64,000 bases of DNA from an uncultured virus (IMG/VR IMGVR_UViG_3300028194_000749) (IMGVR_UViG_3300028194_000749); one strand, 5' to 3'. Shown: positions 15,505 to 62,820, counted from the first letter of the stretch. Notes: generated by a model from the letters alone, not told the origin. Program-made: numbers and translations.

Positions 15505-16473
15505 ATGGCAGATGTTGTAGAACTCATGGATTTTTGGCCAATGGATGATGATGAGAACATCGGATTCGTGGCAGCAGATAGTGATTTCCAACTTTGGTTG
15601 ATTTCTGGAATCGGAGTTGGCTTTGATGATATTTCTTATTCTGTCATTGATGGTCCTGATTCTTCAGGAATCTATGAACTAATTATGGATTATGAGGATT
15701 ATCTGAATCTTGCTGATTTGTATTCAGAATACTTGGAAACAGGATGGGCTGGATTAGAAGAAGAAGACTTTGATGAAGTTTTCGCTATGAACAATGAAGA
15801 AGGCAACGCCCCTATCCAAGACCCAATGGAGTTTGGAGAAATGGCTAACTGGACACCACTTGATGGCACACCCTCACTTAAGCGTCGCAAAGATGCTGAA
15901 GGCTCTGGCGAAATAAACATTGGTCCACTTTATGTTACCAAAAGGGTTCCAGTTTTGTTCAAACACGATTATGTTACAAAAGACTATCAATGGAGCACCG
16001 ATGAACCCTCATATTTGACAGACGACCAAGAAGAAGAACTGGTTGAGATTGTAGAACAAATTGTCGAAGGCTCTGATGAAGAAGAAGGCGACGAATCCTT
16101 TGATGAATATGATTACAAAGGTGATGTCATGTGGGATACTTACAAGGATGATGGAAGGTTTTACGATTTGATGGCAGAAGGAGCCAATCCCTCTGGTGGC
16201 GCAACAGGCGACCAAATTATCTCATGGGAACACAATGGACTTTCTTCTCCATCAGGACCTCCTTCTGATATTTTCTGGTCTGAAGATTTTAATGCTCAAA
16301 TGGGACACAGTAGATTCCAGAAATCAGATAACCCTCGTCGTGACATAGAAAGTTCTACTCGTCGCAAACTTAAGCAAGAAATGTTTTCAGATGTTTCTGG
16401 TGTAGTCAATACAAAAAATATGGCTATTGTTGGAATTGCAGGAATAGTTGGTTATTTGTTAGCGAGGAAGTAA
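15505..16473 (+). CDS. Acidic modular protein with C-terminal tail anchor
   Basis: KDAE, LMAE, FNAQ junctions; C-term MAIVGIAGIVGYLLARK. Confidence 0.7.
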   Translation: MADVVELMDFWPMDDDENIGFVAADSDFQLWLISGIGVGFDDISYSVIDGPDSSGIYELIMDYEDYLNLADLYSEYLETGWAGLEEEDFDEVFAMNNEEGNAPIQDPMEFGEMANWTPLDGTPSLKRRKDAEGSGEINIGPLYVTKRVPVLFKHDYVTKDYQWSTDEPSYLTDDQEEELVEIVEQIVEGSDEEEGDESFDEYDYKGDVMWDTYKDDGRFYDLMAEGANPSGGATGDQIISWEHNGLSSPSGPPSDIFWSEDFNAQMGHSRFQKSDNPRRDIESSTRRKLKQEMFSDVSGVVNTKNMAIVGIAGIVGYLLARK

Positions 16474-16474
16474 T

Positions 16475-16612
16475 ATGAAACAATTGGAATTAGTATTGGC
16501 TTGTGCTGAGTTAAAAACCAACCACATGAGTTATTTAGTTTCCAATGCTAATCAACGAGTCGAAGTATTGCATAATAAAATTACTGAACTTGTTGCCCGA
16601 CTCAATGATTAA
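16475..16612 (+). CDS. 45-aa coiled-coil microprotein (not in ORF track)
   Basis: GAGG SD; MKQLELVLACAELKTNH..LVARLND fills intergenic gap. Confidence 0.45.
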   Translation: MKQLELVLACAELKTNHMSYLVSNANQRVEVLHNKITELVARLND

Positions 16613-16647
16613 ATATCTTTAAGTATCAGCAGTTATATTATAATTGT

Positions 16648-16959
16648 ATGGACAAAGACTTACAAAAGTTTCAAGAAGAGTTAATGTTACTCATTGATGC
16701 TTTTATTACAGATACTTCGGAAGTCAAAGAAGTTATGGGTCGTGTTTCATCACAATTAGAAGATTTAGAAGAAGATATGGCTTATATCAACAAAGTTGTT
16801 CGTGATGGTAACGGTCGTCCTCCAGTTATGACTCGTATTGAAGTCATCGAAGAAAAACTTTCAACTTTGAAAGCAGTTCAAGATAAGTGGTGGCAAGTTT
16901 GGATGGCCGCAGTTCCGGGCTTAATAGCCTTGATAACCACTGGTGCAGTAGTAATGTAG
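16648..16959 (+). CDS. Coiled-coil protein with C-terminal TM
   Basis: Promoter at 16618; heptads, GNGRPP, C-term hydrophobic helix. Confidence 0.6.
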   Translation: MDKDLQKFQEELMLLIDAFITDTSEVKEVMGRVSSQLEDLEEDMAYINKVVRDGNGRPPVMTRIEVIEEKLSTLKAVQDKWWQVWMAAVPGLIALITTGAVVM

Positions 16960-17005
16960 GACTTGAAGACAAAGTTTTAAGTAGTTGATTGACAAATACA
17001 CACCT

Positions 17006-17452
17006 ATGCCTTATTCTGACCCCGAAAAAAAGAAACAATATCAGGATGCTTACAATAAAAAGTATTATCAAGATTACAAAAGTGCCAAAAACTTAGTTGG
17101 CAAAGCCACTCATGCTAAAAGTTTGCTTCGACAAAAGAAGCGAGATTTTCTATTGAAACAATTAGGCCATCAATGTCCAATCTGTGAAATTACTGATACC
17201 ACCGTTTTGCTTATCAAAACCACGCCTCAAACTTTTACTCGTAAGTGGGGAGATGCTTCTTACAAATCATTGTATGATTATTCTTGGGGCGACTTAGAAA
17301 CTATTTGGCCGACACTAAAGATAGTGTGTCAGGTTTGTGCTGAAAAGTCCAAACCAAAACACAAAAAAGCCTTGCAGGAAATGTTTGAGGAAAATCTACC
17401 CAGAGGCTATACCTTAGACGAAGATTTAACCAACCAAGACACGAATCTTTAA
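17006..17452 (+). CDS. Degenerate HNH-endonuclease-like Zn-binding protein
   Basis: MPYSDPEKKKQY N-term, LGHQCPIC..VCQVC; catalytic His not evident. Confidence 0.5.
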   Translation: MPYSDPEKKKQYQDAYNKKYYQDYKSAKNLVGKATHAKSLLRQKKRDFLLKQLGHQCPICEITDTTVLLIKTTPQTFTRKWGDASYKSLYDYSWGDLETIWPTLKIVCQVCAEKSKPKHKKALQEMFEENLPRGYTLDEDLTNQDTNL

Positions 17453-17476
17453 GTATCAAAGCAACGAGGTATAACT

Positions 17477-19144
17477 ATGGGCCATTATGTTATTCAAGCA
17501 CTTCTTGATGGAAACATTGTTTATCATAGAGAAACCCCTGTGAGGGCAGGAGTGGAAAATCTTATTAACGAAGGCATTTCACAATTATTTTCAGTAAGTG
17601 GTGGCAATCCCGGCAGAGATGCCGTAGTTGAAGTCTTGAGATATTATGATGAAGACCCAGTTCCCGAAGTAGAATTAGTTATTTTTGCAGATAGTGTCGA
17701 GGAAGTATTTTTTGAAGCCGAAGCATTGACTGAGGCTAAAGGCAAAGTTCGCACTATGTCTGGCAAGCCACATACACCACGCAAACTTAAGCAAGATTCA
17801 GGCATTAGTCCTGAAGAAGCGGCTCGTCGTATTGCTTTGAAATCAGAAACTCATGTTTTTGATGCAGATACTATGGAATGGGACATAGATTACTTAGAAT
17901 CTTATGAAACACCTTATGGCACCAAATTAGACGGTGTGCTGTATAATCCAACCACGGGAGAATCAGCCGAGTTTGAGGGTATAACTATTGAAACTTCAAT
18001 TCCAGACATAGACCCTATGTATGCTAACATGGAAGATATTCCGACTTACGAAGCCGAGAACGAAGATAACCTCGGACCCATGTTTATGGCCGAATCTAAA
18101 AGCACTATGCCTAAGATTCCTAAAGGAATAAAAACAGGTGGTTGGCAACAGGCTGCTTACATTTACTCAAACGGAGATATTTTTTCTATTGTAGATTACG
18201 AAGAAGTCTATGATATGCCGGTCTATGATATTTGGCATCATAGTGGCAATATACCCAAGATAGATGCGCCCAAAAACACATGGATTTATGATGATGAAGT
18301 AGAATCTTGGGATTGGGACAAGATTTTAGATAAGGCAAAAAATCAGGTCAATAAAGAGTATTATACACTCCGAGCCGAAGAGAAAAAGAACTGCGGTTGC
18401 GGTCAAGACCCCTGTAAGACTTATGGTGCAGAAACTTTTGAAGCCCCGAAATCCAAGACACTTTCACAATTAAAAGACACCTTGACAGCCAAAGACAGAA
18501 AAGCCTTTGATAACCAGAATTGGAGATATTGGGATAGCCCAGATTCAATTTGGAATGAACAACATACTTATCACCAGCGCATTACAGACAGACTCAAGAA
18601 AAACGGTTTCAAGAAAAGCGGTATGTCAGTAGAAACGATGATTAAGAAAATACCTTCTGCTTGGACAAGGTTTTACAACAAGTGGTGGGCTGTTGGAAAA
18701 TCAAACTTTGCATACTTTGGACATCCAAACCATATTGGTGCCAACATTTTTAATTGGTCGGATTTGTTAGATGTGGAGATTTGGACTAAGGATAACCAAA
18801 TTGTAATGGTATGGCAATTCAAACACCACGACCACGGTGATGCTTCTCCGTGGTTAGAACAAACCTTTACTCTGCCTACGAAATCCAAGCCAAAGACGGC
18901 TAAGAAAACTACAACTCGTAAAGCCAAGCCAAAGGCTGCTAAGAAATTAACGGCTAAGACTGGTCGTAAAGCACCCACACTTTCTGCTACTAAGCGAAAG
19001 ATTGGCACTCGAATGCGAGGCAACGACGGTAATATGTGGCAAGTCAAGAAATCTGGAAAATCTCAACGATGGATGGCTGGAGCCGAAACACAAACTCAAA
19101 CTTTCCATTCTTCTATTGATTCCAAGTTTGACGAATTACTGTGA
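17477..19144 (+). CDS. Modular mosaic protein with histone H1-like K/A/T tract and GNDGNMW module
   Basis: FEAE, FDAD, YEAE, FMAE, LRAE, YGAETFEA, AGAE junctions; CGCGQDPC; RKAPTLSATKRKIGTRMRGNDGNMWQVKKSGKSQRW. Confidence 0.7.
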   Translation: MGHYVIQALLDGNIVYHRETPVRAGVENLINEGISQLFSVSGGNPGRDAVVEVLRYYDEDPVPEVELVIFADSVEEVFFEAEALTEAKGKVRTMSGKPHTPRKLKQDSGISPEEAARRIALKSETHVFDADTMEWDIDYLESYETPYGTKLDGVLYNPTTGESAEFEGITIETSIPDIDPMYANMEDIPTYEAENEDNLGPMFMAESKSTMPKIPKGIKTGGWQQAAYIYSNGDIFSIVDYEEVYDMPVYDIWHHSGNIPKIDAPKNTWIYDDEVESWDWDKILDKAKNQVNKEYYTLRAEEKKNCGCGQDPCKTYGAETFEAPKSKTLSQLKDTLTAKDRKAFDNQNWRYWDSPDSIWNEQHTYHQRITDRLKKNGFKKSGMSVETMIKKIPSAWTRFYNKWWAVGKSNFAYFGHPNHIGANIFNWSDLLDVEIWTKDNQIVMVWQFKHHDHGDASPWLEQTFTLPTKSKPKTAKKTTTRKAKPKAAKKLTAKTGRKAPTLSATKRKIGTRMRGNDGNMWQVKKSGKSQRWMAGAETQTQTFHSSIDSKFDELL

Positions 19145-22401: not shown

Positions 22402-23343
22402 ATGGACGCAAAGACAATCGCAGGTGCAGGACTAATTATTGGTGGTGGCCTTATGGGTTACAAATCAATGAAAGATTTGGCAGGGCTTGGATGTTATGGA
22501 CCAGCAGCATATTTGACTCTTGGACTCACAGCAATTGGCGGTGGACTATTCCTCTTTGGAAAACTACGCCGTGAAGAAGTTTCAGCCAAGAATGAACAAG
22601 TTAAAGAAGAAATCTCAGCAGTTTTGAGTTCTGAATACTTCCCACAACTTCCAGATGGTATGGATGCTGGTGCAGTTGTTGTTCCAGATTCCTACGGTGG
22701 CACATCTTCTTTGATGTCAGGCCGTGGTGTCCCACAATGGTATGGAAGCGCAGAAGGTCGTAAATACGGCAAGCGTGACCGCTACACCGACCGATGGGGT
22801 AATGCTCGTTACATGACCCGTCGTAAGGATGGTTCTATCGTTACTTCAGTCAATATCGCAGGTAAGAAGGGTGCAGTTGCTAACGACCGCCGTTCCAACG
22901 CTGTGAACTACGCTAAGTCTGGCTACCGTCAGATGGGTGATGCCAAGCCAGTTGGCCGTGTCGAGCGTGCTATGAAGAATATGTTCGGTGCTGATGGAGA
23001 ATACACAGTCCAAGAACAAGGACTTCCAGTTATCCCAGATTCCTACGGCACAAACTCAGCATTGAGTTCAGGCCAAGGTGTCCCACAATGGTATGGTTCC
23101 GCAGAAGGCAAGAAAGGCCGATACGGAAAGCGACAACGCTTCACTACTTCTAAGGGCAACAGCCGCTATGTCGCTCGCAACACCAAGGGAGAGTTCATCT
23201 CCAATGTAGCCGTCGCTGGTAAGCGTGGTTCAATCGCTCAAGACCTTCGTAAGACCGCTAAGTCATACAAGCCTGTTGGTTACCGCCAAATGGGTGATGG
23301 AAAGCGTGTTTCCCAGAAGGCTCGTCGCAGCAAGAACGAGTGA
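22402..23343 (+). CDS. Membrane-anchored protein with two tandem [PDSYG..VPQWYGSAE + basic domain] units
   Basis: Two N-term TMs; internal duplication of ~120 aa. Confidence 0.75.
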   Translation: MDAKTIAGAGLIIGGGLMGYKSMKDLAGLGCYGPAAYLTLGLTAIGGGLFLFGKLRREEVSAKNEQVKEEISAVLSSEYFPQLPDGMDAGAVVVPDSYGGTSSLMSGRGVPQWYGSAEGRKYGKRDRYTDRWGNARYMTRRKDGSIVTSVNIAGKKGAVANDRRSNAVNYAKSGYRQMGDAKPVGRVERAMKNMFGADGEYTVQEQGLPVIPDSYGTNSALSSGQGVPQWYGSAEGKKGRYGKRQRFTTSKGNSRYVARNTKGEFISNVAVAGKRGSIAQDLRKTAKSYKPVGYRQMGDGKRVSQKARRSKNE

Positions 23344-27194: not shown

Positions 27195-27614
27195 ATGAGC
27201 GAAGATTCCTTCGTAGGTGTCATGGATATTCCTGTTAATCCTGAAATCATGTCTTTGGCTACGATTTCAATACCCAGTGATATTTGTTTGGAAAGTATTT
27301 CTATACCGACTAATGCTATTTCATATATTACTGAAGTTGAGTTCACTTTCTTGTTAGATGGGGATGAAGTTTGGAGTGGCACAGGATTACCACATGGAGT
27401 TGAGTTCGGCATTCCAAATAATTTAGCATTTTCAGACCAACCACGAACCTTGTTAGTTTTGGCGCAACCCAGTGCTTTATTGGGTATGCCTTTAGGATTA
27501 CATACCTCGGAACTACCTATTGCACTCAAAGGTCGTCGAGGCTCTTGTGCTTACACCATAGATACCGAAGAAGATTACGAGTTTCCTTCATTTTTCATAG
27601 ATGCTTGGGTGTGA
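27195..27614 (+). CDS. Hypothetical protein
   Basis: Promoter at 27165. Confidence 0.55.
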   Translation: MSEDSFVGVMDIPVNPEIMSLATISIPSDICLESISIPTNAISYITEVEFTFLLDGDEVWSGTGLPHGVEFGIPNNLAFSDQPRTLLVLAQPSALLGMPLGLHTSELPIALKGRRGSCAYTIDTEEDYEFPSFFIDAWV

Positions 27615-27648
27615 AGTATTAAGTAGGAGAGACATCATATCTTTCCTT

Positions 27649-28815
27649 ATGGCTTACTTGCTTTTATTTACTGGAAAAGGTGGAGTCGGTAAATCAACGA
27701 TTTCCGCAGCCACCGCTTTGCACCATGCTCAACAAGGACTACGCACCCTATTGGTATCCTCTGACCCAGCACACAGCACCGATGATACTTTGGGCATCAA
27801 AGTAGGATTCCAACCCACACAAGTCGCTGAAGATTTACCATTGTGGGCGAAGAATCTGAATGCCGAGGAAATGGCCGGCGATTTCTTCGGGAAGATGGAA
27901 AGTTTGATGGAAAAGTCTTTTGGTTCATTACCCGGTTTTGATTCATCTATGCTTTCAGACTTGAGTAATTTTCCCGGTATGGATGAAGCCTTTGCTATGG
28001 AAGAAATTGAAAGATTGTGTGCTTCCGCAGATTACGATGTTATCGTTTTTGATACTGCACCCACAGGCCACACACTCAAAGCCTTGTCTGCACCAGATTA
28101 TCTTAATACCTTCTTGTTAAAAGTTTTGCGTATGAAAGCCAAAATTGAAAATCTTAAAGGATTTTTTATCAAGAAAGGAGATACTTCTAAACTTGTAGAC
28201 TTACTCGAAGATTTCATCAAGAGGATAGAAAGACTAAAAGTTTTGCTTCGTAATCCTGAATATGTTAGCATTAACTTGGTTTCCATCCCTACTGAAGCAG
28301 GTTTCGCCGAGTGTCTTAGAACCGTTAGATTTTTGGACAACATGAAGATTCCTGTGCAACATATAGTAGTTAATCAAATTATTCCCTCATTTACCCCTGA
28401 TGTGTGGGAGATTGCACCAAGTAACCCTGCGGTAGCACTCCTCAAAACGGAATATGATATTCAACAGCCCTATTTGGGTCGATTTAAGGAACTAACCTCC
28501 TCCCACCCTATTCGGTTGGTTGGAATGACAAGATTACCATTTGAACCCCGTTCCGCCCGCCTCGTAGATGTTGCACATACACTCTGGGGAGAGCGTGGTT
28601 TGAACTTCCCAATCACACCTTCTTTGGAAGTTCAAGAGGATTCATTAACACTCCATATTCCTTACATCAAGAATGCTAAATGGACTAAAGATAATTGGAC
28701 TTATCGTTTTGGAGATTCACTCCATCATATTCCATTGGAAAAACCTGATACTAAGATTACTCGTAAGACCGACAAGAAAACCAATTGTGTTATTTTAAGT
28801 TGGGCGAATGATTAA
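27649..28815 (+). CDS. Get3/ArsA-family (SIMIBI) ATPase, single domain with putative C-terminal alpha-crystallin-like domain
   Basis: GKGGVGKS, SDPAH, PGMDE, DTAPTGHT, VVNQI; start 31 nt after promoter at 27618. Confidence 0.9.
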   Translation: MAYLLLFTGKGGVGKSTISAATALHHAQQGLRTLLVSSDPAHSTDDTLGIKVGFQPTQVAEDLPLWAKNLNAEEMAGDFFGKMESLMEKSFGSLPGFDSSMLSDLSNFPGMDEAFAMEEIERLCASADYDVIVFDTAPTGHTLKALSAPDYLNTFLLKVLRMKAKIENLKGFFIKKGDTSKLVDLLEDFIKRIERLKVLLRNPEYVSINLVSIPTEAGFAECLRTVRFLDNMKIPVQHIVVNQIIPSFTPDVWEIAPSNPAVALLKTEYDIQQPYLGRFKELTSSHPIRLVGMTRLPFEPRSARLVDVAHTLWGERGLNFPITPSLEVQEDSLTLHIPYIKNAKWTKDNWTYRFGDSLHHIPLEKPDTKITRKTDKKTNCVILSWAND

Positions 28816-47443: not shown

Positions 47444-48646
47444 ATGTCAGATTTTATGGCGACTCAACCCAAAGAGGCATTTCCCACTCCGAGTGAGGTA
47501 TGTTTGGGTCAAAAACTTAGGTTTCCTGCCTATGGAGAAGATAGTTTAATTTCTAATGTGCTGTTTATTACTGGTAAGCGAGGTTCAGGAAAGTCTTGGA
47601 CCGCAGGTGTAATGATGGAAGAGTTTCATAGACTTGGATTACAATTTGTTTGTTTCGATGCTTTGAATGCTCATGGTGGCATAGATACATTATCCAGAGT
47701 AGAGTCACTCAAACCCGATGTGGGTCAATCCATTGATATGAAATCATTAGTAGACCGTTTGAAAACCACAGACAAAAGTTTAGTCATCAGTCTGGGTGGA
47801 TTACCTTTACTAAAACAACAAGAACTTATTGGAGATTATTGTGAAGCCTTGATTGAAGCCCGACTGGGCAAAGGTATTCACACTATTATTGAAGAATGTC
47901 AAGATTTCGTGCCACAAATGGGCCGACCTATTTCTTATGACCCTATCGTGCGACTCTGCAAACTTGGTCGTGCATTAGGATACGGTGCGTCTTTGGTTTC
48001 CCAACGACCCGCAGGTGTGAACAAAGAAGCACTTTCGCAAGCATCAGTTTATCTGGTTCACAATGTCATTAACAACCGAGACTTGAAAACTTTGGACGAA
48101 CAATTAAGTTTTGGAACAGACAAGCGATTGATTAAGAAAATCTTGAATGGTATTGCTTCGGCTCGCAAAGGAGAATGTGTCGCCTATGCCCCAGAGTTTT
48201 TCCGAGACCGAGGCTACCTTGTTATTGACAAAGTGCGTAGTGACCGACAAGCCAAGCACACTGGAAACAACATAGATGTTCAGAGTTCCATGATTTCTCA
48301 ATCCGAGTCCAGCGATTCTGTGGATGAACCCTTTGAAGCAGTTAGTTCTGCTTCCGAACTTTCACATTTTGCCCGCCAATCCTCACCAACGATGCCTTCA
48401 GCATCCCCGGCTTTTTCCACGCATCCCACAGGTTATTTATCTCAAGGTGGATTCCAAGATATGGCTATGACTGAAGACCATTGGGAGGCTTCAGAATTAG
48501 AACCCTCTTTAGAATATGATTCCGAAATGGAATTAGAAATAATTCCTGAAAATAAGAATACTATTTGGGTTCCTGTGGCTGCCGTAGGTGGTGTAGGATT
48601 AACTGCTGCTTTAATGATGGTAGTTATGAAAGGCTTTACTCGTTAA
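47444..48646 (+). CDS. HerA/FtsK-superfamily (DUF87-like) ATPase with C-terminal tail anchor
   Basis: GKRGSGKS, IIEECQ, GRALG, SQRP; C-term IWVPVAAVGGVGLTAALMMVVMK. Confidence 0.85.
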   Translation: MSDFMATQPKEAFPTPSEVCLGQKLRFPAYGEDSLISNVLFITGKRGSGKSWTAGVMMEEFHRLGLQFVCFDALNAHGGIDTLSRVESLKPDVGQSIDMKSLVDRLKTTDKSLVISLGGLPLLKQQELIGDYCEALIEARLGKGIHTIIEECQDFVPQMGRPISYDPIVRLCKLGRALGYGASLVSQRPAGVNKEALSQASVYLVHNVINNRDLKTLDEQLSFGTDKRLIKKILNGIASARKGECVAYAPEFFRDRGYLVIDKVRSDRQAKHTGNNIDVQSSMISQSESSDSVDEPFEAVSSASELSHFARQSSPTMPSASPAFSTHPTGYLSQGGFQDMAMTEDHWEASELEPSLEYDSEMELEIIPENKNTIWVPVAAVGGVGLTAALMMVVMKGFTR

Positions 48647-49581: not shown

Positions 49582-49995
49582 ATGAATGACGACACAGGAT
49601 TCTCCCAACCAATTATTGAAGACCCAAACAGCACTGTGGGTTCCTACCCATGGGATGGCGACCACGGAGCCACTCGTGCTTTTGATGTTAGTTCAATGTC
49701 TGTTATGTCAAATCCAATGCCTTCTATGGTTCAACCAGCCAAAGATGCAGTTTCAGAAGAGTTTCAAGGATTGAAAGACGAAGTTACCGAGTCTACTTCA
49801 CCAGAAGGTGCAGACATGGGACAAACTGGCGACGCTGGCGGAGATGCTGACGGACAAAACTTTGGACAAGACCAAGGTTCCCAAGACACAATGGAGGCCG
49901 AATCAATCAGTTTGCCTATCATTGGAACAGTTTCATTCCTAACAATTGGTGTTGTTGGAGTCCTCGGTTACTTCTTTTTGAAGCGAGGCGAATAA
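49582..49995 (+). CDS. Acidic tail-anchored protein
   Basis: MEAE directly before C-term TM LPIIGTVSFLTIGVVGVLGYFFLKR. Confidence 0.7.
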   Translation: MNDDTGFSQPIIEDPNSTVGSYPWDGDHGATRAFDVSSMSVMSNPMPSMVQPAKDAVSEEFQGLKDEVTESTSPEGADMGQTGDAGGDADGQNFGQDQGSQDTMEAESISLPIIGTVSFLTIGVVGVLGYFFLKRGE

Positions 49996-50032: not shown

Positions 50033-50890
50033 ATGGCAAGAGTAATCGGAAATGCAGTTCTACCAGATTTGCCCTATTCACCAAATCTGCGCCCACTACC
50101 ACAAGTAAATATCACTCGTGATACTTTAGCAGGATATAATGCTCGTGCTATGATTGGCCAAGGTCTTTCATCGGCTGCACCTCGTCCCTCACCAACTATC
50201 ACCAAGATGCCTTCAATTTCAGTTCCAGAAAGCAAACCTATGTCTATGGAAGCACAGGCTATGGGTGCAGGATATGGACAAGGTATCGTTCCTATGACTC
50301 CTCGCCCAGCACCTATGCAAATGAATATCCCTCGTCTTGATATTCCTATTGGCAGCATGGCACAAGACTTTGCTTTGCAGAACTACGATTTGATGGGACA
50401 AGGTATTACACCTGAAGCCCAATACCTACGACCTACTCACACTATGGAAGTTTATGCACCTGCCGCAGCACCAAATGTTGCTGGACTTGAGCGTATGAAG
50501 CCAGAGATGATGATGGGAAGTATTAACGCCCACCAACCTACAATGAACTTTGGTGGCGACCCTCGTATGGAAGCAGAGTTCGCATCCATTCGACCAACTA
50601 ATCCACGACAAATGACTCGTGCACCTACTGTTAATATCTCAGCAAGCGCACGCCGAATACCAATTCGTGAGTTGCCTCTAATCCCTGCCAGCACACAACC
50701 TCGTGTGCCAAATGTTTCTGCTTTGATTGGCCCAGTTAAGTCAATCAAGATGGAAGCCCAATATGTCGCACCACCTGTGCGTAACTCTGACCTTGGAGGA
50801 ATGCTCAACAGCACCAGCCGAGTCGGAGGATTTGGAAACAGCAGTGGAAGAACCTTTGGTGCAGAAGCACCACTTACAGTAAGACTGTAA
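50033..50890 (+). CDS. Pro/Met-rich low-complexity modular protein
   Basis: MEAQ, PEAQ, MEAE, MEAQ, FGAE junctions; repeated GQG motifs. Confidence 0.65.
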   Translation: MARVIGNAVLPDLPYSPNLRPLPQVNITRDTLAGYNARAMIGQGLSSAAPRPSPTITKMPSISVPESKPMSMEAQAMGAGYGQGIVPMTPRPAPMQMNIPRLDIPIGSMAQDFALQNYDLMGQGITPEAQYLRPTHTMEVYAPAAAPNVAGLERMKPEMMMGSINAHQPTMNFGGDPRMEAEFASIRPTNPRQMTRAPTVNISASARRIPIRELPLIPASTQPRVPNVSALIGPVKSIKMEAQYVAPPVRNSDLGGMLNSTSRVGGFGNSSGRTFGAEAPLTVRL

Positions 50891-51542: not shown

Positions 51543-51824
51543 ATGGCAAGAAATATATTTTCCATTTTAACTCCATTAGTTATCGCTGGTTGCGCTGGAC
51601 TTTTGATTGGTAAGATGATTTCTCAAAAGAAAGATGCCGAATCAGTATGGCCTTATGTTGTCGTTGAACCTACTGAAACCAATATGTTGATGCAAAGCCT
51701 TGTGATGCGTCCTGCGGTTAATGCCGAACTTAACTATTTGTATGGTAGTGCTCCTGCTGTTAATATCAGCAACATGACAAACATGATTGTTGGCACCCCA
51801 CTTCCTCAAGCAATTTACAACTAA
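51543..51824 (+). CDS. N-terminal TM protein
   Basis: Promoter 51513; KDAE and VNAE motifs. Confidence 0.6.
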   Translation: MARNIFSILTPLVIAGCAGLLIGKMISQKKDAESVWPYVVVEPTETNMLMQSLVMRPAVNAELNYLYGSAPAVNISNMTNMIVGTPLPQAIYN

Positions 51825-51835
51825 GGTGAGATTAA

Positions 51836-52345
51836 ATGAATAATTATCTACTTGGAGCCATCGGAATAGCAGCATTTGGTTTAGGATATTCATCTATGTC
51901 TTTTAAGAAAGTTGAGGCCGAAGAAAAAGAAGATTGTGGATGTTCACATCAGAAAAGAGCCGAGGCTCGTGTCACTCGTGGAGAAGAAGTTTTCAATTCT
52001 GAACTCACCCAAGATATGTCTGGTAATTCTACTGATTTGTCTCGCATCAATCCTGTGGAAGTTTCAGGGTCCGAAGATGTTTATGGTGCTGAATATGTCA
52101 ATATGAATCCCTTAGACTATCAAACACCTACTGCTTTCAGTCAGTATTCTGGCTATGCTTCCCAACCTTTCTGGGACCAAGCCAATGATATGCTACCAGA
52201 GTATAGATATGCTATGCCGTGGAGTTCATCTTATCTTCCTGTTAATGAGTGGCGACCTAACGACCAACAAGGCTACCCTGCTGGTCCTCTACCATTAGAT
52301 GTTCGCACCCGTAGTAGGAATTATCAAACTTGGCAACGCTCTTGA
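51836..52345 (+). CDS. N-terminal TM modular protein
   Basis: VEAEEKEDCGC, KRAE, FNSE, YGAE. Confidence 0.65.
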   Translation: MNNYLLGAIGIAAFGLGYSSMSFKKVEAEEKEDCGCSHQKRAEARVTRGEEVFNSELTQDMSGNSTDLSRINPVEVSGSEDVYGAEYVNMNPLDYQTPTAFSQYSGYASQPFWDQANDMLPEYRYAMPWSSSYLPVNEWRPNDQQGYPAGPLPLDVRTRSRNYQTWQRS

Positions 52346-52924: not shown

Positions 52925-52945
52925 TTGTATCAGACCACTACAACT

Positions 52946-53220: not shown

Positions 53221-53679
53221 ATGGCTTTGATGACTAACTCCTATGTTCGCCGAGATGCGAATACAGAAATAGGTTTTTTACCACCGACTTCTTCTGAATC
53301 TATGATGATGAATGATGGCACTACTATGCCTGCTACTGCTTTCCGAGAAGATTCTCCAGTTATGAAATACACACCCGAAGAACTTGGCATGAATCCTCGT
53401 GCTTCACCATTTTATGACCCAGACACTAATTCCGCAGCCATGGCCAGACCAGCCCAACCAAGTGGTAGTCAGACCACTGCCGTTGATTCTAACTCGGCTG
53501 CCTCGACAGTTTTAGGTGCAGAGTATAATGTAGAGGCTATGGATGCTGTCGGAACTGGTGCTGTTATGGCAGCCTCCAATTTTAACACTTGGTTTTCATC
53601 CAACATCGGATTTATTGCATTGGCCTGTGTCGGCGTTTATGCTGTCTACCGATTTGGAGTGAACTCTAATGCTGCGTGA
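53221..53679 (+). CDS. Tail-anchored protein
   Basis: LGAE; C-term IGFIALACVGVYAVYRF. Confidence 0.65.
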   Translation: MALMTNSYVRRDANTEIGFLPPTSSESMMMNDGTTMPATAFREDSPVMKYTPEELGMNPRASPFYDPDTNSAAMARPAQPSGSQTTAVDSNSAASTVLGAEYNVEAMDAVGTGAVMAASNFNTWFSSNIGFIALACVGVYAVYRFGVNSNAA

Positions 53680-54184
53680 TTATCAAGCGGGAAACCGAGT
53701 AACATCTATTGCAGTTCAAGACCTTGGAATTGGCACTGTTTTAGTCCCCAGTCTAACTAATGTTATCGTTGAATGGGATGATGGCACTTGGTCTAAAGAA
53801 CGCTACCAAGATATAATCTTTATTGGTAATAGTAAAACCCAACCTTTGCCTAATCCGACTCGTGGAGGTTCTCAACGAAAACTTAAGGGTTCTAACGATA
53901 AACAAAGAGATAGTTCTACTCGATTAGATTTTGAACCTCAAGAAAAGTTTGATAATCCTGAAGCCAATTTTCGCCCAGAGCCTTATGTCTACGGCACAGC
54001 CAGTTTGAATCAAGATATAGGATTCTTGGCTGAAGATTGGGTGCCCACAGAGATTGCGAATACTGACCCACAGTTTCCTAATCCTTATGCGGCTCGTGTC
54101 AAATACTTTGAACAGCGTATGGACCGAGCCATGACAAATTGGTTGCTGCAAAATCAAGGTAGCAAATTAGCCCGGAGGTATTAA
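53669..54184 (+). CDS. Protein with N-terminal SH3-like beta-barrel
   Basis: YQAGNRV..GIGTV..VIVEWDDG; FLAE. Confidence 0.55.
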   Translation: MLRDYQAGNRVTSIAVQDLGIGTVLVPSLTNVIVEWDDGTWSKERYQDIIFIGNSKTQPLPNPTRGGSQRKLKGSNDKQRDSSTRLDFEPQEKFDNPEANFRPEPYVYGTASLNQDIGFLAEDWVPTEIANTDPQFPNPYAARVKYFEQRMDRAMTNWLLQNQGSKLARRY

Positions 54185-54186: not shown

Positions 54187-55413
54187 ATGATAGGACCTCA
54201 ACGACCCGATGGCATGGGAATGGATAGTCTACAAAACCATGGACCCATTTATTATCAAGATGTCGCCACAGGAGAAACTAAAACTTTCTTACGCTGGGCA
54301 CAATCTTACACTTTGTATCATCAAAACGATGGCACTCTGGTAGCCTATGCTCGTTTTTCTAATGGCATACCCCCGACTACCCTACGGGCAATCGACACAC
54401 CACCCGGCGCAGCCAGTGGTCCGAATTGGCCGCCGGCTTCAACTTTTAATGCTGAATCTACTCAATTCGACCAATTACGAAAAGAACTCCGAACTCAGGG
54501 TGTTAATCTTCAAGCCACTAAGCGTATTCCTCCTACATGGGTAGAACTGATTAGCGAGGATTTGCCAATGGGATTCAAACTCGTAGGTTTAGTATCTCCT
54601 GATTATTATTCAGGTTATGATGCTGACCCTTATCAACAAGTTATTTCAGGACAAGGTGAAGCAGGTATCAATCAAGAAGGATTAGGTATTATTCTAAGTG
54701 GTAATAACTCTACCGCAAAAACTATTGCTTTTCAAGGTGCCAGTTTAACCCGTCAATTAGAACTTTTTAATGATTTAGTATCTGCCTCTCAAAAGTTTTT
54801 GAATCCTGTGGTTTCTTATCGCAACACTGGCACTGTGGCTGGATATAGCCCTTTGAATACTGAAGGTCGTCGTTGGCAACCGGGTGACCTCGTTAATATC
54901 GCTCGCCCTACTTCTGATGCTGGAGGTTTAGCCACGGCTCATGTTGTCCGAGTTTATCCTACTCAAGTCTTAGTTACTTGGCCTAATGATGCCGACCATC
55001 CTAAGTCTGAATATCCTCGTGGTTGGTTCACTAAAGAAGAGAAAACGGATTTGATTTTTATCAAGAATGATAAAACTTGGTTAGAGCAATACAAAAAACT
55101 TCCCAATGATTTTAGTTCTCGCTATGGTTCTGAAAGTGGACAACACGCTCAACCAAGTTACAACATGGATGGTAGTTGGTTTTCAACCAGTAATGCTGTG
55201 CCTCTTTATGGTGATGTGGGAGAGAGATTTAATGAAAGTAGAATGATGGGTCAAGCCCCACCTTGGGCTACTGACCTACCACTCCCAACAGGACTTCGAC
55301 TTCGCACTACACCCAAAAAAGGTAAAACCGATTTGTATGGTGAGATGGATGAAATCATGCTACATATTAAGCGTCAAGAGGCTATTGCCCAACTCACAGG
55401 ATTGTCGTTGTAA
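54187..55413 (+). CDS. Modular hypothetical protein with SH3-like segment
   Basis: FNAE, YGSE; WQPGDLV..AHVVRV..VLVTW. Confidence 0.6.
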   Translation: MIGPQRPDGMGMDSLQNHGPIYYQDVATGETKTFLRWAQSYTLYHQNDGTLVAYARFSNGIPPTTLRAIDTPPGAASGPNWPPASTFNAESTQFDQLRKELRTQGVNLQATKRIPPTWVELISEDLPMGFKLVGLVSPDYYSGYDADPYQQVISGQGEAGINQEGLGIILSGNNSTAKTIAFQGASLTRQLELFNDLVSASQKFLNPVVSYRNTGTVAGYSPLNTEGRRWQPGDLVNIARPTSDAGGLATAHVVRVYPTQVLVTWPNDADHPKSEYPRGWFTKEEKTDLIFIKNDKTWLEQYKKLPNDFSSRYGSESGQHAQPSYNMDGSWFSTSNAVPLYGDVGERFNESRMMGQAPPWATDLPLPTGLRLRTTPKKGKTDLYGEMDEIMLHIKRQEAIAQLTGLSL

Positions 55414-55451
55414 TAGTAATCTTTAAGTATCGGTGTTGATTAAGAATGACT

Positions 55452-56306
55452 ATGCGTCTGGCTCAAGTTGGTTTGGGAACACTTCTTATTGGTGTGGCAG
55501 CCTATTTTGGTAGCGACACAGTTCGTAATAAAGTTTCAACTGTTTTCGGTGCAGATGCCATCACACCTGCCGAATTAGAAGAAATGCACATTGAATCCAG
55601 TGGAGTTACTGTGGACACAGTTCCAGTTTCACAAGTTCAAGCATTCATGGGTTGGCAACAACTTCGCCTACAACACACTAACGCAGTTGCTAATGACTCA
55701 CCATTTATGGATGGAGTCGTAGATGCCCAGCCTGTTTATACTAATCCCTTTGATATTGGATACAGTTTCGACCAAGAGTATTATGGAGCAGAAACTTTTG
55801 AAGCAACTGGAGATTACGCTGGCCAAGGACCTTCTTCTTATAATGTGGCTAATCCACCTAATACTATTCCAACTGCTGGAACACCTTATCGTATTCAAGC
55901 ACACACTGGACAAGTTTATAGCACCGACCCCTCAACTGGAGTTAATGGACAACCTATTGCTTACTCTGGTGCTACACCAGTGGCACGACTTCCACCAGAA
56001 GTTACCAGCGACTTCCCATACATGGTAAGTCTAATCAATGTTCCTTTCCAAGAAATTGCTACATCTGACATCGGTAGTAACCGATTCGGCAGTTTGGCTC
56101 GTAACAGCACCGACGACAATGTAAATGCTCGATTCGGTGAAACTGCACTAAATCCTGAAGTTGATGCTTCTTACACATCACCCACAGGAGAGACCAAGCC
56201 ATTGAGTCAATGGCGAAGCAAATACACGGTTTTGCGACATTCAGACACCACAGTAAGTGCAATCCCATTTAGTGGCGGTGTCGAACTACAACTAAGGAGA
56301 GTATAA
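55452..56306 (+). CDS. N-terminal TM modular protein
   Basis: FGAD, YGAETFEA (identical to 17477 protein); promoter 55422. Confidence 0.65.
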   Translation: MRLAQVGLGTLLIGVAAYFGSDTVRNKVSTVFGADAITPAELEEMHIESSGVTVDTVPVSQVQAFMGWQQLRLQHTNAVANDSPFMDGVVDAQPVYTNPFDIGYSFDQEYYGAETFEATGDYAGQGPSSYNVANPPNTIPTAGTPYRIQAHTGQVYSTDPSTGVNGQPIAYSGATPVARLPPEVTSDFPYMVSLINVPFQEIATSDIGSNRFGSLARNSTDDNVNARFGETALNPEVDASYTSPTGETKPLSQWRSKYTVLRHSDTTVSAIPFSGGVELQLRRV

Positions 56307-56308: not shown

Positions 56309-57976
56309 ATGACTGGAGAAAAAATGCTATATGTTAAATCAAATGACTTTTGGGGATATGATGCGAGCGATTTTGATTCGTCTCTAAACTTTTACACCTA
56401 CACATGGACAGTTCCAGCAGCCATGTATGATGGTATGGATGATAGCGACCAAGGACGACTCTTCCCTTGTGCACTATTTTATGTCCAAGGAGTTACTGAT
56501 AATCACAATTTCCTAACACTTTCTATTGATGTTACGGGTGCCGATGCTAAAGTTCGTGGTATGCAAGGAGCCAAGCGTCGCACACTCAAGTTTGAAAAAG
56601 GTGTGCCTTATGCTTATTCCGTTGGTAGTTTGTCTATGAAGGAAGCACCTGCTGGTTCTTCTAACATCAGTGAGATTGAAACTGCGGTTAAAGATGGTTC
56701 GGCTACTATGACTGGAGTATTCAATGTTGATTCTTTCCTAACTGATGCAGGTGAAATCGCAACAGCAGTTGGTTTGTCTACTGCCTCATCAGCAGAAAGT
56801 TATGAAGCAGAAGTTTCGGATTTCTATCCACAATCCTCTGCTGAAATTGGTAACGAACAATCTGGCCGTGGAGTTCCAGTGGCTTATGGCTCTGGCTCAT
56901 CTCAATATGTTGAACCACCAGTGGTTGAACTTGAAGCAGAAGTTTCAGATTTCTACCCTCAATCATCTGCCGAAATCGGTGATGAACAATCAGGGCGTGG
57001 AGTTCCTGTGTCTTACGGCTCAGGGTCCTCACAATATGTTGAGCCTCCTGTTGTGGAACTCGCAGCAGAAGTTTCTGACTTCTACCCACAATCTTCAGCC
57101 GAAATCGGTGATGAACAATCTGGACGAGGAGTTCCTGTGTCTTATGGCTCTGGTTCTTCTCAATATGTTGAACCACCAGTTGTAGAACTCGGTGCTGAAG
57201 TTATTGATGATGATTACATGGATGCTTATTCGGCTATGGGAGAACCAGATGCAGAATACGACCAAGGCTACAACGACCAACTCGACGAATCCCTCGGAAT
57301 GAGAGATGGAGCAGAAGGAAACTTCCGCCAATCTATGAAATCCCGAAGAGATGAGTCAAAAGGGACTGAAAAATATGATAAGTCTCGCCCCTACTCTGGA
57401 GTAGATACTATGGATGCACAAGGATACAACGACAAAATGGATGAATCATTGGGTATGCGACATCGTGGTCGTCATTCTCAATCAATGAAAGACCGCCGAG
57501 ATGAAGCGGCTGCTATGGACCGAAAATACGGAATGAAGCGTAAGTATGATGATGTTATGACAATGGATGCTGATGGTATGATTACCGAAGGCTTGCCAGT
57601 TATTCCAGATTCCTACGGCACTAATTCTGCACTAAGTTCTGGACAAGGTGTGCCAGTTTGGTATGGTAGTGCAGATGGTATGGAAGATTACAACTACCAA
57701 AGCAACGAGGGTTCATTGGATAGCGCAGGCTTCACAGAAGGCACTGTTAATCCTATGGAGTTCACTCGTCTTGGTGCTTATGATGTTCCAGTTATTTCTA
57801 ACAGTTTAGGAGAAGATTCTTCTGAGATGGGATATGGAGTTCCACAATGGTATGGAGCCGACACTATGGCAGACAACTTCGAGGAATCTGCACCACCTAT
57901 GAATATGGGTAAGAAAACAGTTGGTCTAATGGCTATCATTGGATTGCTTGCTGGAGCATACATGGCTCGTAAGTGA
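56309..57976 (+). CDS. Repeat-containing modular tail-anchored protein
   Basis: 3x43-aa repeat, 2x QGYND..DESLGMR, 2x VPxWYG modules, C-term TVGLMAIIGLLAGAYMARK. Confidence 0.75.
   Translation: MTGEKMLYVKSNDFWGYDASDFDSSLNFYTYTWTVPAAMYDGMDDSDQGRLFPCALFYVQGVTDNHNFLTLSIDVTGADAKVRGMQGAKRRTLKFEKGVPYAYSVGSLSMKEAPAGSSNISEIETAVKDGSATMTGVFNVDSFLTDAGEIATAVGLSTASSAESYEAEVSDFYPQSSAEIGNEQSGRGVPVAYGSGSSQYVEPPVVELEAEVSDFYPQSSAEIGDEQSGRGVPVSYGSGSSQYVEPPVVELAAEVSDFYPQSSAEIGDEQSGRGVPVSYGSGSSQYVEPPVVELGAEVIDDDYMDAYSAMGEPDAEYDQGYNDQLDESLGMRDGAEGNFRQSMKSRRDESKGTEKYDKSRPYSGVDTMDAQGYNDKMDESLGMRHRGRHSQSMKDRRDEAAAMDRKYGMKRKYDDVMTMDADGMITEGLPVIPDSYGTNSALSSGQGVPVWYGSADGMEDYNYQSNEGSLDSAGFTEGTVNPMEFTRLGAYDVPVISNSLGEDSSEMGYGVPQWYGADTMADNFEESAPPMNMGKKTVGLMAIIGLLAGAYMARK
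56807..57193 (+). repeat. 3 x 129-nt in-frame tandem repeat (AEVSDFYPQSSAEIGxEQSGRGVPVxYGSGSSQYVEPPVVELx)
   Basis: Units begin at 56807, 56936, 57065; synonymous divergence. Confidence 0.95.
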
Positions 57977-57986
57977 GGCGATTCAA

Positions 57987-60891: not shown

Positions 60892-60916
60892 GTAGTTGAA
60901 CAGGAGAGTTAAAAAC

Positions 60917-61936
60917 ATGAATGCAGTAACAGATGTAGTCGAAGATTCCTACGAAGGACTCATGGATGCAAAGTTTTATTCTGGCGTTGCTGGTATTGCC
61001 ATTGGTGGAGTTCTCGGCAGCGTCGTGACTCTACTACCATTCTACAAACTTGGAACTTTTGGAAATATCGCTCGCACAGTAGTTACCGCAGGCTCAGGTG
61101 CTTACCTTGTTCAAATGTCTCGTAAAGTTTCTGGAGATATGTCTTCCTTGTATCTTGGTGCAGGAACCATCCTCGGATTCATTGGTGTTACACAAGCCGT
61201 GGGATACCTCACTGCATTCACAGGACTTTCTATCCCGGGATTCAATGGACTTGGTAGTGTTTTAATCGGTGAAGCAGAATCTTCAATTCTACCTCAGCGT
61301 GGCTCTGGCCGTGTTCTCGGTCAAGAAACAGCAACCCAAGATTTTTCTGACATCTACAATTCCGAAGATATTTTTGAGGAAGGCACACAACAAATGATTA
61401 ACCGTGTTCCTGCTGACAACCCAGTTGATTCAGTCGTCGAACAAGCACCACTTGGCCATGGAGTTACTCAATGGTTTGGTGCAGACGGAATCTCTGCTAC
61501 TGGTGGAGTTGCCCAAAGTTTTGGTGGAGTTGCTGAATCATCTTCCGTCAATCACAACCCACAGACTAATGTTAGTCAATATGTTTCCTCAGTTGATACT
61601 ATGGGAACTCGTGCTATGAATGTGAACAAGGGTTCACCACTTACACAATCTGCCTATGGTAAGAACTATTCACCTCCAGTTTCATTCCAATCTGAAGAAC
61701 CTACTATGAAGATGGGACAAAGTGACGCACCAACTCCAAGTATGGGACAACTACCAGACATCTGGAGTTCTTACATCAAACCTTCCACCACTGCCGAAGA
61801 AATGGTAATGGACACCGTTAGAATGATTAACCCGGGACAACCTATCCAATGGTATGGTTCCGAAGAAAGTTCTACTGGAGTTCTATCACACCATATGTCT
61901 CACGCAGAAGGATTTGGAAGTGTCATAGGACAATAA
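60917..61936 (+). CDS. Multi-TM N-terminus plus modular disordered C-terminus
   Basis: GEAE, HGVTQWFGAD, GQPIQWYGSE, SHAE; start 30 nt after promoter 60887. Confidence 0.7.
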   Translation: MNAVTDVVEDSYEGLMDAKFYSGVAGIAIGGVLGSVVTLLPFYKLGTFGNIARTVVTAGSGAYLVQMSRKVSGDMSSLYLGAGTILGFIGVTQAVGYLTAFTGLSIPGFNGLGSVLIGEAESSILPQRGSGRVLGQETATQDFSDIYNSEDIFEEGTQQMINRVPADNPVDSVVEQAPLGHGVTQWFGADGISATGGVAQSFGGVAESSSVNHNPQTNVSQYVSSVDTMGTRAMNVNKGSPLTQSAYGKNYSPPVSFQSEEPTMKMGQSDAPTPSMGQLPDIWSSYIKPSTTAEEMVMDTVRMINPGQPIQWYGSEESSTGVLSHHMSHAEGFGSVIGQ

Positions 61937-61964
61937 AACTAAAAAAAAATAAAGGTGAAATGAA

Positions 61965-62216
61965 ATGCTACAAAGAATGTGTGATTGGACAAACTCTCGA
62001 AATGGACAAATTGTAATGGGTGTTGCTACTTTAGTCGGTGGCCTACATCTATTCTTCAGCGAATCTCAACCAGTATTGGGTATGCTCGATATTGGCGGTA
62101 TTACTCTAATGGGTAAGGAAATCGGAGTCCAGCAAGTTCTGGGTGTCGTTCTTTCCATTGGTGGTGCTTGCTATGTTTGGGATTATTGCTGTGCTGATAC
62201 CGGCATGGGTATGTAA
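61965..62216 (+). CDS. Small two-TM membrane protein
   Basis: AGGTGA SD; two hydrophobic helices. Confidence 0.6.
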   Translation: MLQRMCDWTNSRNGQIVMGVATLVGGLHLFFSESQPVLGMLDIGGITLMGKEIGVQQVLGVVLSIGGACYVWDYCCADTGMGM

Positions 62217-62223
62217 ATAGGAG

Positions 62224-62820
62224 ATGAATAATATGAATATAAAAAGAATACTTGTGAATGAATATACTGTTGGCGGAAGCCTATTGCTGGTTGGTGCTGG
62301 ATTCTTCAGCACTCGATTTACTGATGCTCTCTCTTATGAGTTGTTCACTCTACCCTCGGCTATCCCTATGATTGGCGGTGCATCTGTCACTGTTGGTCGT
62401 GTGGCTGGTTTAGTCCCACTAAGTTTGGGTATTGCATTCTTGCTCGGTAAGGTTCGCCCAGTTACTTCCAAAGTTCCAGTCGTTGATAAGGTCGTAGACC
62501 TTGCTGACCGAATCGTGAACGAAGTTTCAATGCCGGTTTCTGAAGAAACATCCACAATGGGTGCAGAGTTCTGTGCAGAACACAACGCTGAGTTCTCTGC
62601 TTGCGGTTGTGGCACTAAAGCGGCTGAAACCGTAGACCATCTTAATCCAACTGAAGTTGATTCCCCAGAAGTTTCTCTGGAAGCAGAATCAGGCTCCAAA
62701 AAAAAACTAAAATGGACTGACGCTGTGAAAGCGGCTCGCAAAGAGTTAGGCATCACTGGATTTAGCGCAGTTAAGAAGGAAACTCCCCTTTACAAGCGTG
62801 CTAAAGCACTAATGGCGTGA
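62224..62820 (+). CDS. Two-TM protein with C-terminal DVNP-like basic module
   Basis: MGAE FCAE HNAE KAAE LEAE; C-term KWTDAVKAARKELGITGFSAVKKETPLYKRAKAL. Confidence 0.7.
   Translation: MNNMNIKRILVNEYTVGGSLLLVGAGFFSTRFTDALSYELFTLPSAIPMIGGASVTVGRVAGLVPLSLGIAFLLGKVRPVTSKVPVVDKVVDLADRIVNEVSMPVSEETSTMGAEFCAEHNAEFSACGCGTKAAETVDHLNPTEVDSPEVSLEAESGSKKKLKWTDAVKAARKELGITGFSAVKKETPLYKRAKALMA

Follow-up and report, generated by a model that had tools for sequence, protein, structure and literature searches.

Proteins encoded in IMGVR_UViG_3300028194_000749, a 64,000-nucleotide (nt) stretch of DNA from an uncultured virus, share a short peptide motif, [F/M/Y]-x-A-[E/D], which is enriched, selected at the peptide level, maintained throughout the virus family, and positioned at the borders between protein modules. 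We consider endoproteolytic processing at this motif on many substrates to be its best explanation, with a probability of roughly 0.45, because a short, order-specific signal, kept family-wide, marks the places where modules naturally end, and these modules are found elsewhere as independent proteins. The whole 64,000-nt stretch is referred to here as the window (W), its open reading frames (ORFs) are named by their start coordinates, two syntenic relatives are labeled G1 (G001) and G2 (G002), and L071 is a locus of a distant clade. The motif-rich late block of the window starts with ORF 47444, which encodes a HerA/FtsK-superfamily ATPase. Coordinates are collected in Table 1.

A preliminary description of the window had listed 17 tetrapeptides in 12 flagged ORFs and had summarized them as [FYMLV]-x-[AS]-[EDQ]. 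All 17 were present in the sequence; FNAE and one YGSE reside in ORF 54187-55413, outside the flagged set, and the longest-ORF starts of two flagged genes are 55446 and 60896 rather than 55452 and 60917. Whole-protein shuffles (300 per ORF, flagged versus other ORFs of the window) showed enrichment in the flagged ORFs, with 47 instances of the broad pattern against 23.3 expected (z = 4.95) and 18 of [FYML][EG]A[ED] against 0.86, whereas the 62 other ORFs were at expectation (101 versus 97.3 and 3 versus 3.9, respectively). The supposed rarity in enzymes was not observed, since the 10 enzyme ORFs were likewise at expectation (30 versus 26.2), with no depletion. The proposed class proved too wide. 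When each position was left open in turn, position 1 was enriched for F (3.4-fold), M (2.5-fold), and Y (2.2-fold) as opposed to L (0.96-fold); position 2 for G (3.0-fold), E (2.0-fold), and D (1.8-fold); position 3 for A (3.1-fold) as opposed to S (1.1-fold); and position 4 for E (4.0-fold) and D (1.7-fold) as opposed to Q (1.0-fold). The F/M/Y, A, and E/D part of the class therefore stands, whereas its L or V, S, and Q part is not enriched, and 3 of the 12 flagged ORFs (15505, 51543, and 53221) hold no core instance. S and Q variants were found where orthologues have A and E, so they are tolerated. The motif is thus real and narrower than first described, with a core of [F/M/Y]-[G/E/D preferred]-A-[E/D] that is often extended to AE-x-F. 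Inside the late block, F was 5-fold enriched two residues past the motif (25/137) and T was enriched directly after it; no flank signal was detected outside the late block.

Because the flagged ORFs had been chosen post hoc, selection-free tests were also run. Scoring of all a.bc patterns over all ORFs placed F.AE and M.AE near the top in both relatives (27 versus 9.4 and 21 versus 7.0 in G001; 28 versus 8.9 and 25 versus 6.2 in G002), where only Q/G repeats and CxxC patterns matched or outranked them. Totals for [FYMLW].A[ED] reached 62 versus 35.6 expected in the window, 151 versus 91.3 in G001, and 147 versus 87.6 in G002, with the excess concentrated downstream of the HerA/FtsK ATPase. Local shuffles within windows of 15 or 30 amino acids (aa) left a 3- to 4.4-fold enrichment in four divergent genomes (23 versus 7.4 in W, 51 versus 12.6 in G001, 32 versus 9.2 in G002, and 26 versus 7.2 in L071), and none of 300 shuffles reached the observed count in any of them. 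The signal also depended on residue order: among 12 slot orderings, H-x-A-Z gave 132 instances and ten others 24 to 40, while the excess of A-Z-x-H (70) corresponds to the AE-x-F extension of the same motif. Codon usage at the motif Ala and Glu/Asp followed the background, which places selection at the peptide level and rules out a DNA word as the explanation. Enrichment extended over the late blocks of four genomes. Several proteins hold 3 to 8 instances; upstream of the late block, ORF 17477 has 6 against 1.0 expected.

Maintenance of the motif was assessed across the virus family. A metagenome scan with the 54187 family retrieved 51 loci spanning 100% to 31% identity, which are related to each other; a few stem from the very virus represented by the window or by G001. 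In 50 of these 51 nonindependent loci the motif was enriched at p<0.05 (ratios 1.4 to 4.7), including the clade that is only 31 to 34% identical. Around 20 core instances, a motif occurred within 6 alignment columns in 66% of nonredundant orthologues, compared with 3.6% at 2206 control positions, a difference that owes part to ordinary homology. Near-perfectly kept sites stand in poorly conserved flanks (54187:313, 51836:53, 55446:34, 60896:194/264/320, 62224:152, and 50033:179), with 60896:264 kept in 9/9 orthologues, and the motif was regenerated at nonhomologous places in divergent linkers. Column by column, the outcome was mixed, with individual sites kept in up to 9/9 and 14/15 orthologues and no conservation of the fixed positions above that of the flanks.

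The position of the motif at module borders, already proposed in the preliminary description, was supported by indel borders, model linkers, fusions, and free-standing modules. The gap fraction within 12 columns of the motif was 0.251 versus 0.118 elsewhere (p=1e-4), and of 384 borders of indels of at least 20 aa, events that are not independent, 91 had a motif no more than 8 aa away, where 45 were expected; flanks were only slightly richer in disorder-promoting residues (0.569 versus 0.543). The best-resolved case is the three-domain protein 54187, the only orphan that was folded. Its second AlphaFold2 (AF2) model, built from 45 sequences (predicted local distance difference test score [pLDDT], 63.9), comprises three confident domains separated by low-pLDDT linkers, and both motif sites lie in those linkers. 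Foldseek searches of this model against PDB and BFVD returned no match at E<=0.001, with weak KOW/Tudor-like rows only. Both sites are kept in 16 close homologues, and site 2 (residue 313) in 14/15 orthologues and in 14/14 of a set including the distant clade. Distant-clade orthologues lack everything upstream of site 1 and start just after it, and the representatives P0018, P0020, P0021, and P0023 likewise begin just past this site.

Other modules behave similarly. The ~57-aa N-terminal module of 54187 (N-module) stands at the start of 11 proteins that are otherwise unrelated and mostly tail-anchored, and its end, which often reads ...LTLRxVPT-MxAE, carries the motif in 7 of them, or in 9/13 when two more 54187-like forms are included. 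The N-module hidden Markov model (HMM) also recognizes the C-terminal ~45 residues (...LQLRRV-end) of 55446-family proteins, with E values of 4e-7 to 5e-4, indicating that this module can stand at either protein end. Four distant representatives combine a 53669-type module with 54187-type domains in one fused protein, and three of the four have the motif in the linker. A CGC(G) mini-motif occurs a few residues past A-E junctions in three window proteins (17477, 51836, and 62224), and the distant clade encodes a protein with Cys-rich mini-domains bracketed by MAAE, MDAE, FGAE, and FGAE. Many late-block proteins and a few upstream ORFs are strings of autonomous modules joined by the motif. Among these modules are the ~57-aa N-module, a 51-aa DESLG cassette, modules of barrel-like and of Cys-rich mini-domain type, and segments that are basic and DNA-binding-like. 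The flagged proteins are only in part "otherwise unrelated," as several share GVPQWYGSAEG, LPVIPDSYG, or YGAETFEA.

The 51-aa cassette links the motif to module autonomy as well. Its consensus is QGY[ND]D..DESLG...KY[DE]DV..MD[AS][EDQ], and 22 embedded copies, 1 to 3 per protein, were found in 15 distinct proteins, the host protein in G001 differing from that in the window. Identity of the cassette between the window and the distant clade reaches 85%, against 33% for their 54187 proteins. All 22 embedded copies end in MD[AS][EDQ] and are preceded by Q, and five of the six MDAQ endings are directly followed by another cassette. Nine free-standing proteins of 55 to 86 aa from public data (P0057-P0065), which are basic and returned nothing meaningful from Pfam and PHROGs, consist of just this unit: a short basic leader, a start at QG[YF] (Q before G[YF] in 9/9), and an end at [ST]M[DG] followed by a basic tail. 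None of the nine carries A-[EDQ] after MD, so the Ala-acidic pair is specific to the embedded context. The cassette also lends mild, indirect support to the A|[E/D/Q] register put forward in the preliminary description, because the residue after Ala belongs to the downstream unit.

Family-wide maintenance and a shared signal at module borders are what a multi-substrate processing system predicts. If the motif is cut on many precursors, their modules would be separated after synthesis or assembly; the cut would probably fall between Ala and the acidic residue, and the protease could be a viral protein of unrecognized fold or a host enzyme. The late block probably encodes virion proteins. The particle maturation invoked in the preliminary description is an assumption, as no capsid or portal was recognized.

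Several observations weigh against cleavage. Doubled motifs (YGAEsFNAD and MGAEFCAE) fit multivalent binding equally well. Sixty loosely defined instances were no more conserved at fixed positions than their flanks (0.518 versus 0.547, p=0.88). Four of the 13 N-module ends lack the motif, and so does the fused junction in P0025, the only gene fusion returned by a BLAST-level screen. No N-terminal bias was observed (15 versus 14.2 expected), unlike in phage systems with mostly N-terminal propeptides. No capsid, portal, or scaffold was recognized among the window and G001 ORFs by Pfam and PHROGs. Finally, no peptidase family was matched in the 74 window ORFs (Pfam and PHROGs), in the 115 G001 ORFs (Pfam) or 74 of those (PHROGs), or among 103 unannotated proteins in a permissive scan at E<=0.5. 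The element-encoded protease that had been postulated was thus not found in the window or in the G001 ORF scans, where a very divergent one is possible.

Further searches gave the same picture. NCBIfam (selected proteins), a PDB sequence search, Atlas, and a fold search revealed no protease, and phmmer against PDB returned nothing for 54187, 48660, 37934, 43356, 41978, and 24208. Peptidase_S21 (PF00716) was unmatched in G001 and G002, though control genomes were unmatched too, and hmmscan of all ORFs yielded no S21; a Trypsin_2 search of the relatives, whose contigs were searched in part, gave no match. Conserved His/Ser/Asp residues had suggested 54187 or 48660 as the protease, candidates that lack fold or family support. 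No Pfam or PHROG family of HK97-fold capsids, portals, or terminases was found, nor a jelly-roll capsid family by sequence, and 54187, the one protein folded, has no significant fold match. The herpesvirus and phage analogies drawn earlier were confirmed by no homology. The motif is not a mark of N-terminal propeptides, given the absence of positional bias, nor of transmembrane (TM) anchors: it had been placed just before TM segments and in membrane-tethered precursors, but a core motif lies within 50 aa of the anchor in 7/30 C-anchored and 9/34 N-anchored proteins, which is at the chance level of ~22% estimated from block-wide motif density.

The main rival, somewhat unlikely in our view, is a docking motif that is not cleaved, acidic-aromatic copies of which would bind a common hub from flexible linkers and recruit proteins to one assembly site. 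Such a hub could be the ATPase, a chaperone, a capsid or membrane scaffold, or a barrel-like module within 53669 or 54187. Multiple copies in linkers, positional turnover, and flanks of low column conservation are consistent with such docking, as are the doubled instances, the AE-x-F extension, the small barrel-like modules of the late block (weak KOW/Tudor-like rows and the 53669 pattern), and the lack of a protease in the Pfam and PHROGs scans. It leaves unexplained why the motif coincides with natural termini of modules existing as separate proteins and why free-standing cassettes drop A-[EDQ], and no hub was identified.

A passive structural junction, i.e., a helix or strand cap or a hinge at domain ends that spread by module shuffling and has no signaling role, is improbable. 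It could explain why the motif sits at domain ends and adjoins indels, why modules are clearly shuffled between proteins, and why column conservation does not exceed that of the flanks, but not why the same four-residue pattern follows unrelated modules (N-module, cassette, 43-aa repeats, and barrel module), is regenerated at nonhomologous positions in divergent linkers, and remains 3- to 4-fold enriched in the clade of 31 to 34% identity; besides, codon usage is not fixed, so the motif was not copied as DNA. More improbable still is another modification or sorting site, recognized by an enzyme acting on Glu or the aromatic residue, or serving for loading into a particle or into a secretion or conjugation-like apparatus of a nonviral linear element. 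No specific evidence points to it, and neither border position nor module autonomy is predicted by it, even though a methyltransferase-like gene (52382) lies inside the late block, HerA/FtsK ATPases also serve DNA transfer systems (a weak CedD match was obtained), and no capsid was recognized. A chance or compositional artifact of acidic, Ala-rich low-complexity sequence is practically negligible, being rejected for the core motif by scans free of ORF selection, by shuffling within local windows, by permuting the residue order, and by recurrence in independent genomes, despite the choice of ORFs after the motif had been seen, the inflation of counts by the 56309 tandem repeat, and the lack of enrichment of the broad pattern (L/V, S, Q).

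Table 1. Motif-bearing, flagged, and contextual features (window coordinates unless a locus is given)
Feature	Coordinates	Strand	Description
15505	15505..16473	+	Flagged; 322 aa; hydrophobic C-terminal tail, further tail-anchored candidate; loose variants only, no core motif
17477	17477..19144	+	Mosaic, 555 aa; 5 core motifs: FEAE 17711-17722, FDAD 17858-17869, YEAE 18047-18058, FMAE 18083-18094, YGAE(TFEA) 18422-18445; CGCG 18392-18403; C-terminal part strongly basic (net +23 over residues 320-555)
22402	22402..23343	+	N-anchored; GVPQWYGSAEG junctions 22726-22758 and 23077-23109, FGAD 22984-22995 between; basic segment after each junction, net +14 (residues 119-194) and +18 (residues 229-313)
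49582	49582..49995	+	Acidic, candidate tail-anchored protein; MEAE 49891-49902 directly before TM segment
50033	50033..50890	+	Highly conserved Pro-rich protein; MEAQ 50246-50257; MEAE 50567-50578 (residue 179), kept in 8/8 nonredundant orthologues; MEAQ 50750-50761, kept in 7/8 nonredundant orthologues; FGAE 50855-50866
51543	51543..51824	+	Flagged, small, N-anchored; no core motif, VNAE and MISQ only
51836	51836..52345	+	N-anchored; VEAE then EK..CGC (51935-51943); FNSE 51992-52003 (residue 53), kept in 12/13 orthologues; YGAE 52082-52093
53221	53221..53679	+	Flagged, candidate tail-anchored protein; no core motif, LGAE only
53669	53669..54184	+	Conserved N-terminal barrel-like module, then FLAE 54023-54034, kept in 10/11 orthologues
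54187	54187..55413	+	N-module 54250-54420, core, C-terminal part; site 1 FNAE 54445-54456; site 2 YGSE 55123-55134
55446	55446..56306	+	N-anchored; FGAD 55545-55556 (residue 34), kept in 9/10 orthologues; YGAE(TFEA) 55782-55805; N-module-like C terminus 56172-56303
56309	56309..57976	+	Mosaic, further tail-anchored candidate; conserved N-domain first; GVPVWYGSAD 57647-57676; GVPQWYGAD 57836-57862
56309 tandem repeats	56804-57202	+	129-nt repeats (43-aa units) bordered by YEAE/LEAE/LAAE/LGAE
56309 DESLG cassettes	57263-57421 and 57419-57574	+	Endings MDAQ and MDAD
60896	60896..61936	+	N-anchored; QWFGAD 61469-61486 (site 194) and QWYGSE 61847-61864 (site 320), each kept in 9/9
62224	62224..62820	+	N-anchored; MGAE-FCAE 62557-62580; CGCG 62602-62613; LEAE 62677-62688 (residue 152), kept in 9/9; then basic 43-aa tail, net +9
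5'-3' exonuclease	8925	+	Pfam/PHROGs
ERCC4/XPF	11557	+	Pfam/PHROGs
PCNA	12282	+	Pfam/PHROGs
Class II ribonucleotide reductase	13303	+	Pfam/PHROGs
GET3/TRC40/ArsA-family ATPase	27601..28815	+	ArsA_ATPase E 8e-59; TIGR00345 195.8 bits (cut-off 135)
C5 methyltransferase	31983-32891	+	Pfam/PHROGs
HerA/FtsK-superfamily ATPase	47444..48646	+	C-terminal TM anchor; candidate tail-anchored protein
Candidate tail-anchored protein	75-1838
Candidate tail-anchored protein	1843-2088
Candidate tail-anchored protein	5447-5659
Candidate tail-anchored protein	16648-16959
Candidate tail-anchored protein	52925-53176
Candidate tail-anchored protein	57939-58658
Candidate tail-anchored protein	59144-60052
19787	19787-21475		562 aa; TSP3 and Gln-Gly repeats
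37934	37934-41941		1335 aa; weak AAA and AAA-lid matches
46173	46173-47405		VWA-like
52382	52382-52924		Orphan, methyltransferase-like
PolD large subunit (DP2), G001	L008:6627-10190	-	E 1e-104
MCM-like helicase, G001	L008:16106-17827	-
TBP, G001	L003:15740-16378	+
Archaeal Holliday junction resolvase, G001	L009:17982-18545	-
C5 cytosine methyltransferases, G001	L010:8620-11278		Three in tandem
HerA/FtsK ATPase, distant clade	L071:2367-3605		C-terminal TM
Cys-rich mini-domain protein, distant clade	L071:13604-14644

The window belongs to a ~160-kb linear archaeal virus-like genome with inverted terminal repeats. The window holds 74 probable genes, the real ones all on the + strand, at a G+C content of about 41%, and only a minority are assigned by Pfam and PHROGs. 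The two IMG/VR relatives (160,342 bp for G001 and 166,176 bp), both classed as carrying inverted terminal repeats, are syntenic with the window from 35826 to beyond 62224. The archaeal assignment follows from archaea-type replication and transcription genes in the window (PCNA, XPF, and class II ribonucleotide reductase) and in G001 (PolD, TBP, resolvase, primase small subunit, and MCM-like helicase); G001, whose genes are laid out in two convergent arms, also encodes PolX and an ATP-dependent ligase. The case for a viral element has two grounds, the classification in IMG/VR and the HerA/FtsK ATPase, since no capsid, portal, scaffold, or protease family was recognized. ORF 47444 matches DUF87/HerA, solved HerA chains (E values of 4e-7 to 1e-5), and NCBIfam HerA, and it is the sole "terminase" PHROG match in the window, being in fact a HerA/FtsK ATPase; tblastn of a phage collection with this ATPase gave no match. 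Two PolD-based scans of a genome collection for the host found nothing, and tRNA and Rfam scans of the window had no matches. Genomes combining PolD, TBP, Get3, a tail-anchored HerA ATPase, inverted terminal repeats, and no recognizable capsid appear undescribed: no account of PolD-encoding archaeal viruses of ~160 kb, or of this motif, was found in a literature search whose coverage excluded subscription journals and supplements.

The HerA/FtsK ATPases of the window and of the distant clade both have the tail anchor, a C-terminal TM segment after an acidic linker. Beside the Get3 homologue 27601, the window encodes 10 or more candidate tail-anchored proteins. This combination suggests a virus-encoded tail-anchor targeting factor; a limited literature search returned no description of a virus-encoded Get3. 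The basic tail of 62224 (62677-62817) shows a weak likeness to the viral nucleoprotein DVNP at E 0.013, below the cut-off. C5 cytosine methyltransferases are multiple: the window encodes one, and G001 has a tandem array of three. The orphan 52382 has an S-adenosylmethionine (SAM)-methyltransferase motif I (ILEFGSGTGT), weak Methyltransf_25 and BioC matches, and a C-terminal Cys cluster. Upstream of the ATPase, 37934 and 46173, the latter with a metal ion-dependent adhesion site (MIDAS)-type motif (DQSGSM), may together make up a MoxR/VWA-like pair; at this place the distant clade encodes two VWA-like paralogues. Protein 19787 combines bacterial TSP3 (calcium-binding) repeats with a long Gln-Gly repeat (CAAGGA x41 at 20303-20551, and more Q/G-rich arrays to about 20722).

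A wider scenario is conceivable, if doubtful. This archaeal virus lineage may build its particle or membrane assembly from polyprotein-like precursors cut at [F/M/Y]-x-A|[E/D] by a protease of unrecognized fold or a co-opted host protease, which would release as autonomous small modules the conserved, charged peptide of 51 aa, basic segments that condense DNA, Cys-rich mini-domains, and the shared N-terminal targeting module, while its own Get3 homologue would insert tail-anchored precursors, including the packaging ATPase.

Processing of many substrates at one consensus has precedents. The protease gp245 of the giant phage SPN3US cleaves after A-X-E, at 14 sites distributed over 9 head proteins and with multiple cuts inside propeptides (PMC10052503). 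That system resembles the one proposed here in that a single short Glu-containing consensus serves numerous virion proteins, individual substrates are cut at several sites, and targeting propeptides are removed. It differs in that its A-X-E occupies P3-P1, whereas here Ala adjoins Glu/Asp and F/M/Y stands two residues upstream. Phages with prohead proteases further differ because here the sites are spread along proteins rather than N-terminal, the searches recovered neither a prohead protease nor an HK97-type capsid, portal, or terminase, the ATPase is of HerA/FtsK type, and the host is archaeal. The systems of phiKZ (gp175) and T4 (gp21) are further examples of prohead-protease maturation. 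Closer in host domain, VP1 of the archaeal fusellovirus SSV1 is cleaved by an unknown protease between a small residue and the conserved Glu that follows it; a short upstream patch is essential, and no viral ORF looks protease-like (PMC5748691). SSV1, an unrelated 15-kb virus, nevertheless has a single substrate with a single site, which reads ...KLTKG|EATN... in the SSV1 ORF and is not [FMY]-x-A-E. Neither SPN3US nor SSV1 is a family match for the present system.

Among eukaryotic viruses, herpesvirus assemblin cuts hydrophobic-x-A|S, and in adeno-, pox-, and asfarviruses (African swine fever virus) one protease with one short consensus processes a range of structural precursors, basic core proteins among them. 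The motif would share the hydrophobic P3 and Ala P1 of assemblin sites if cut at A|E; its P1' is acidic instead of Ser or Gly, and the searches detected no homologue of these proteases. Short linear motifs of multivalent hubs are likewise acidic-aromatic stretches of 4 to 6 residues, present in several copies in flexible linkers and subject to positional turnover, but the motif described here coincides with the natural ends of modules found as separate proteins, a property that docking motifs lack. The tail-anchored FtsK/HerA-superfamily ATPase of the late block recalls membrane-containing viruses with FtsK/HerA packaging.

Tailed phages and herpes-, adeno-, pox-, and asfarviruses all depend in their assembly on proteolytic maturation at a single consensus; for archaeal viruses, the sole case found in the literature is the single VP1 site of SSV1. 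The question can be addressed in marine metaproteomes through semispecific termini at A|E. If processing occurs, the junction code would be a sequence rule predicting the mature products of dozens of orphan proteins and a handle for finding the missing protease, and a known strategy would be extended, with a new consensus, to a virus lineage and a host domain for which it has no earlier description.

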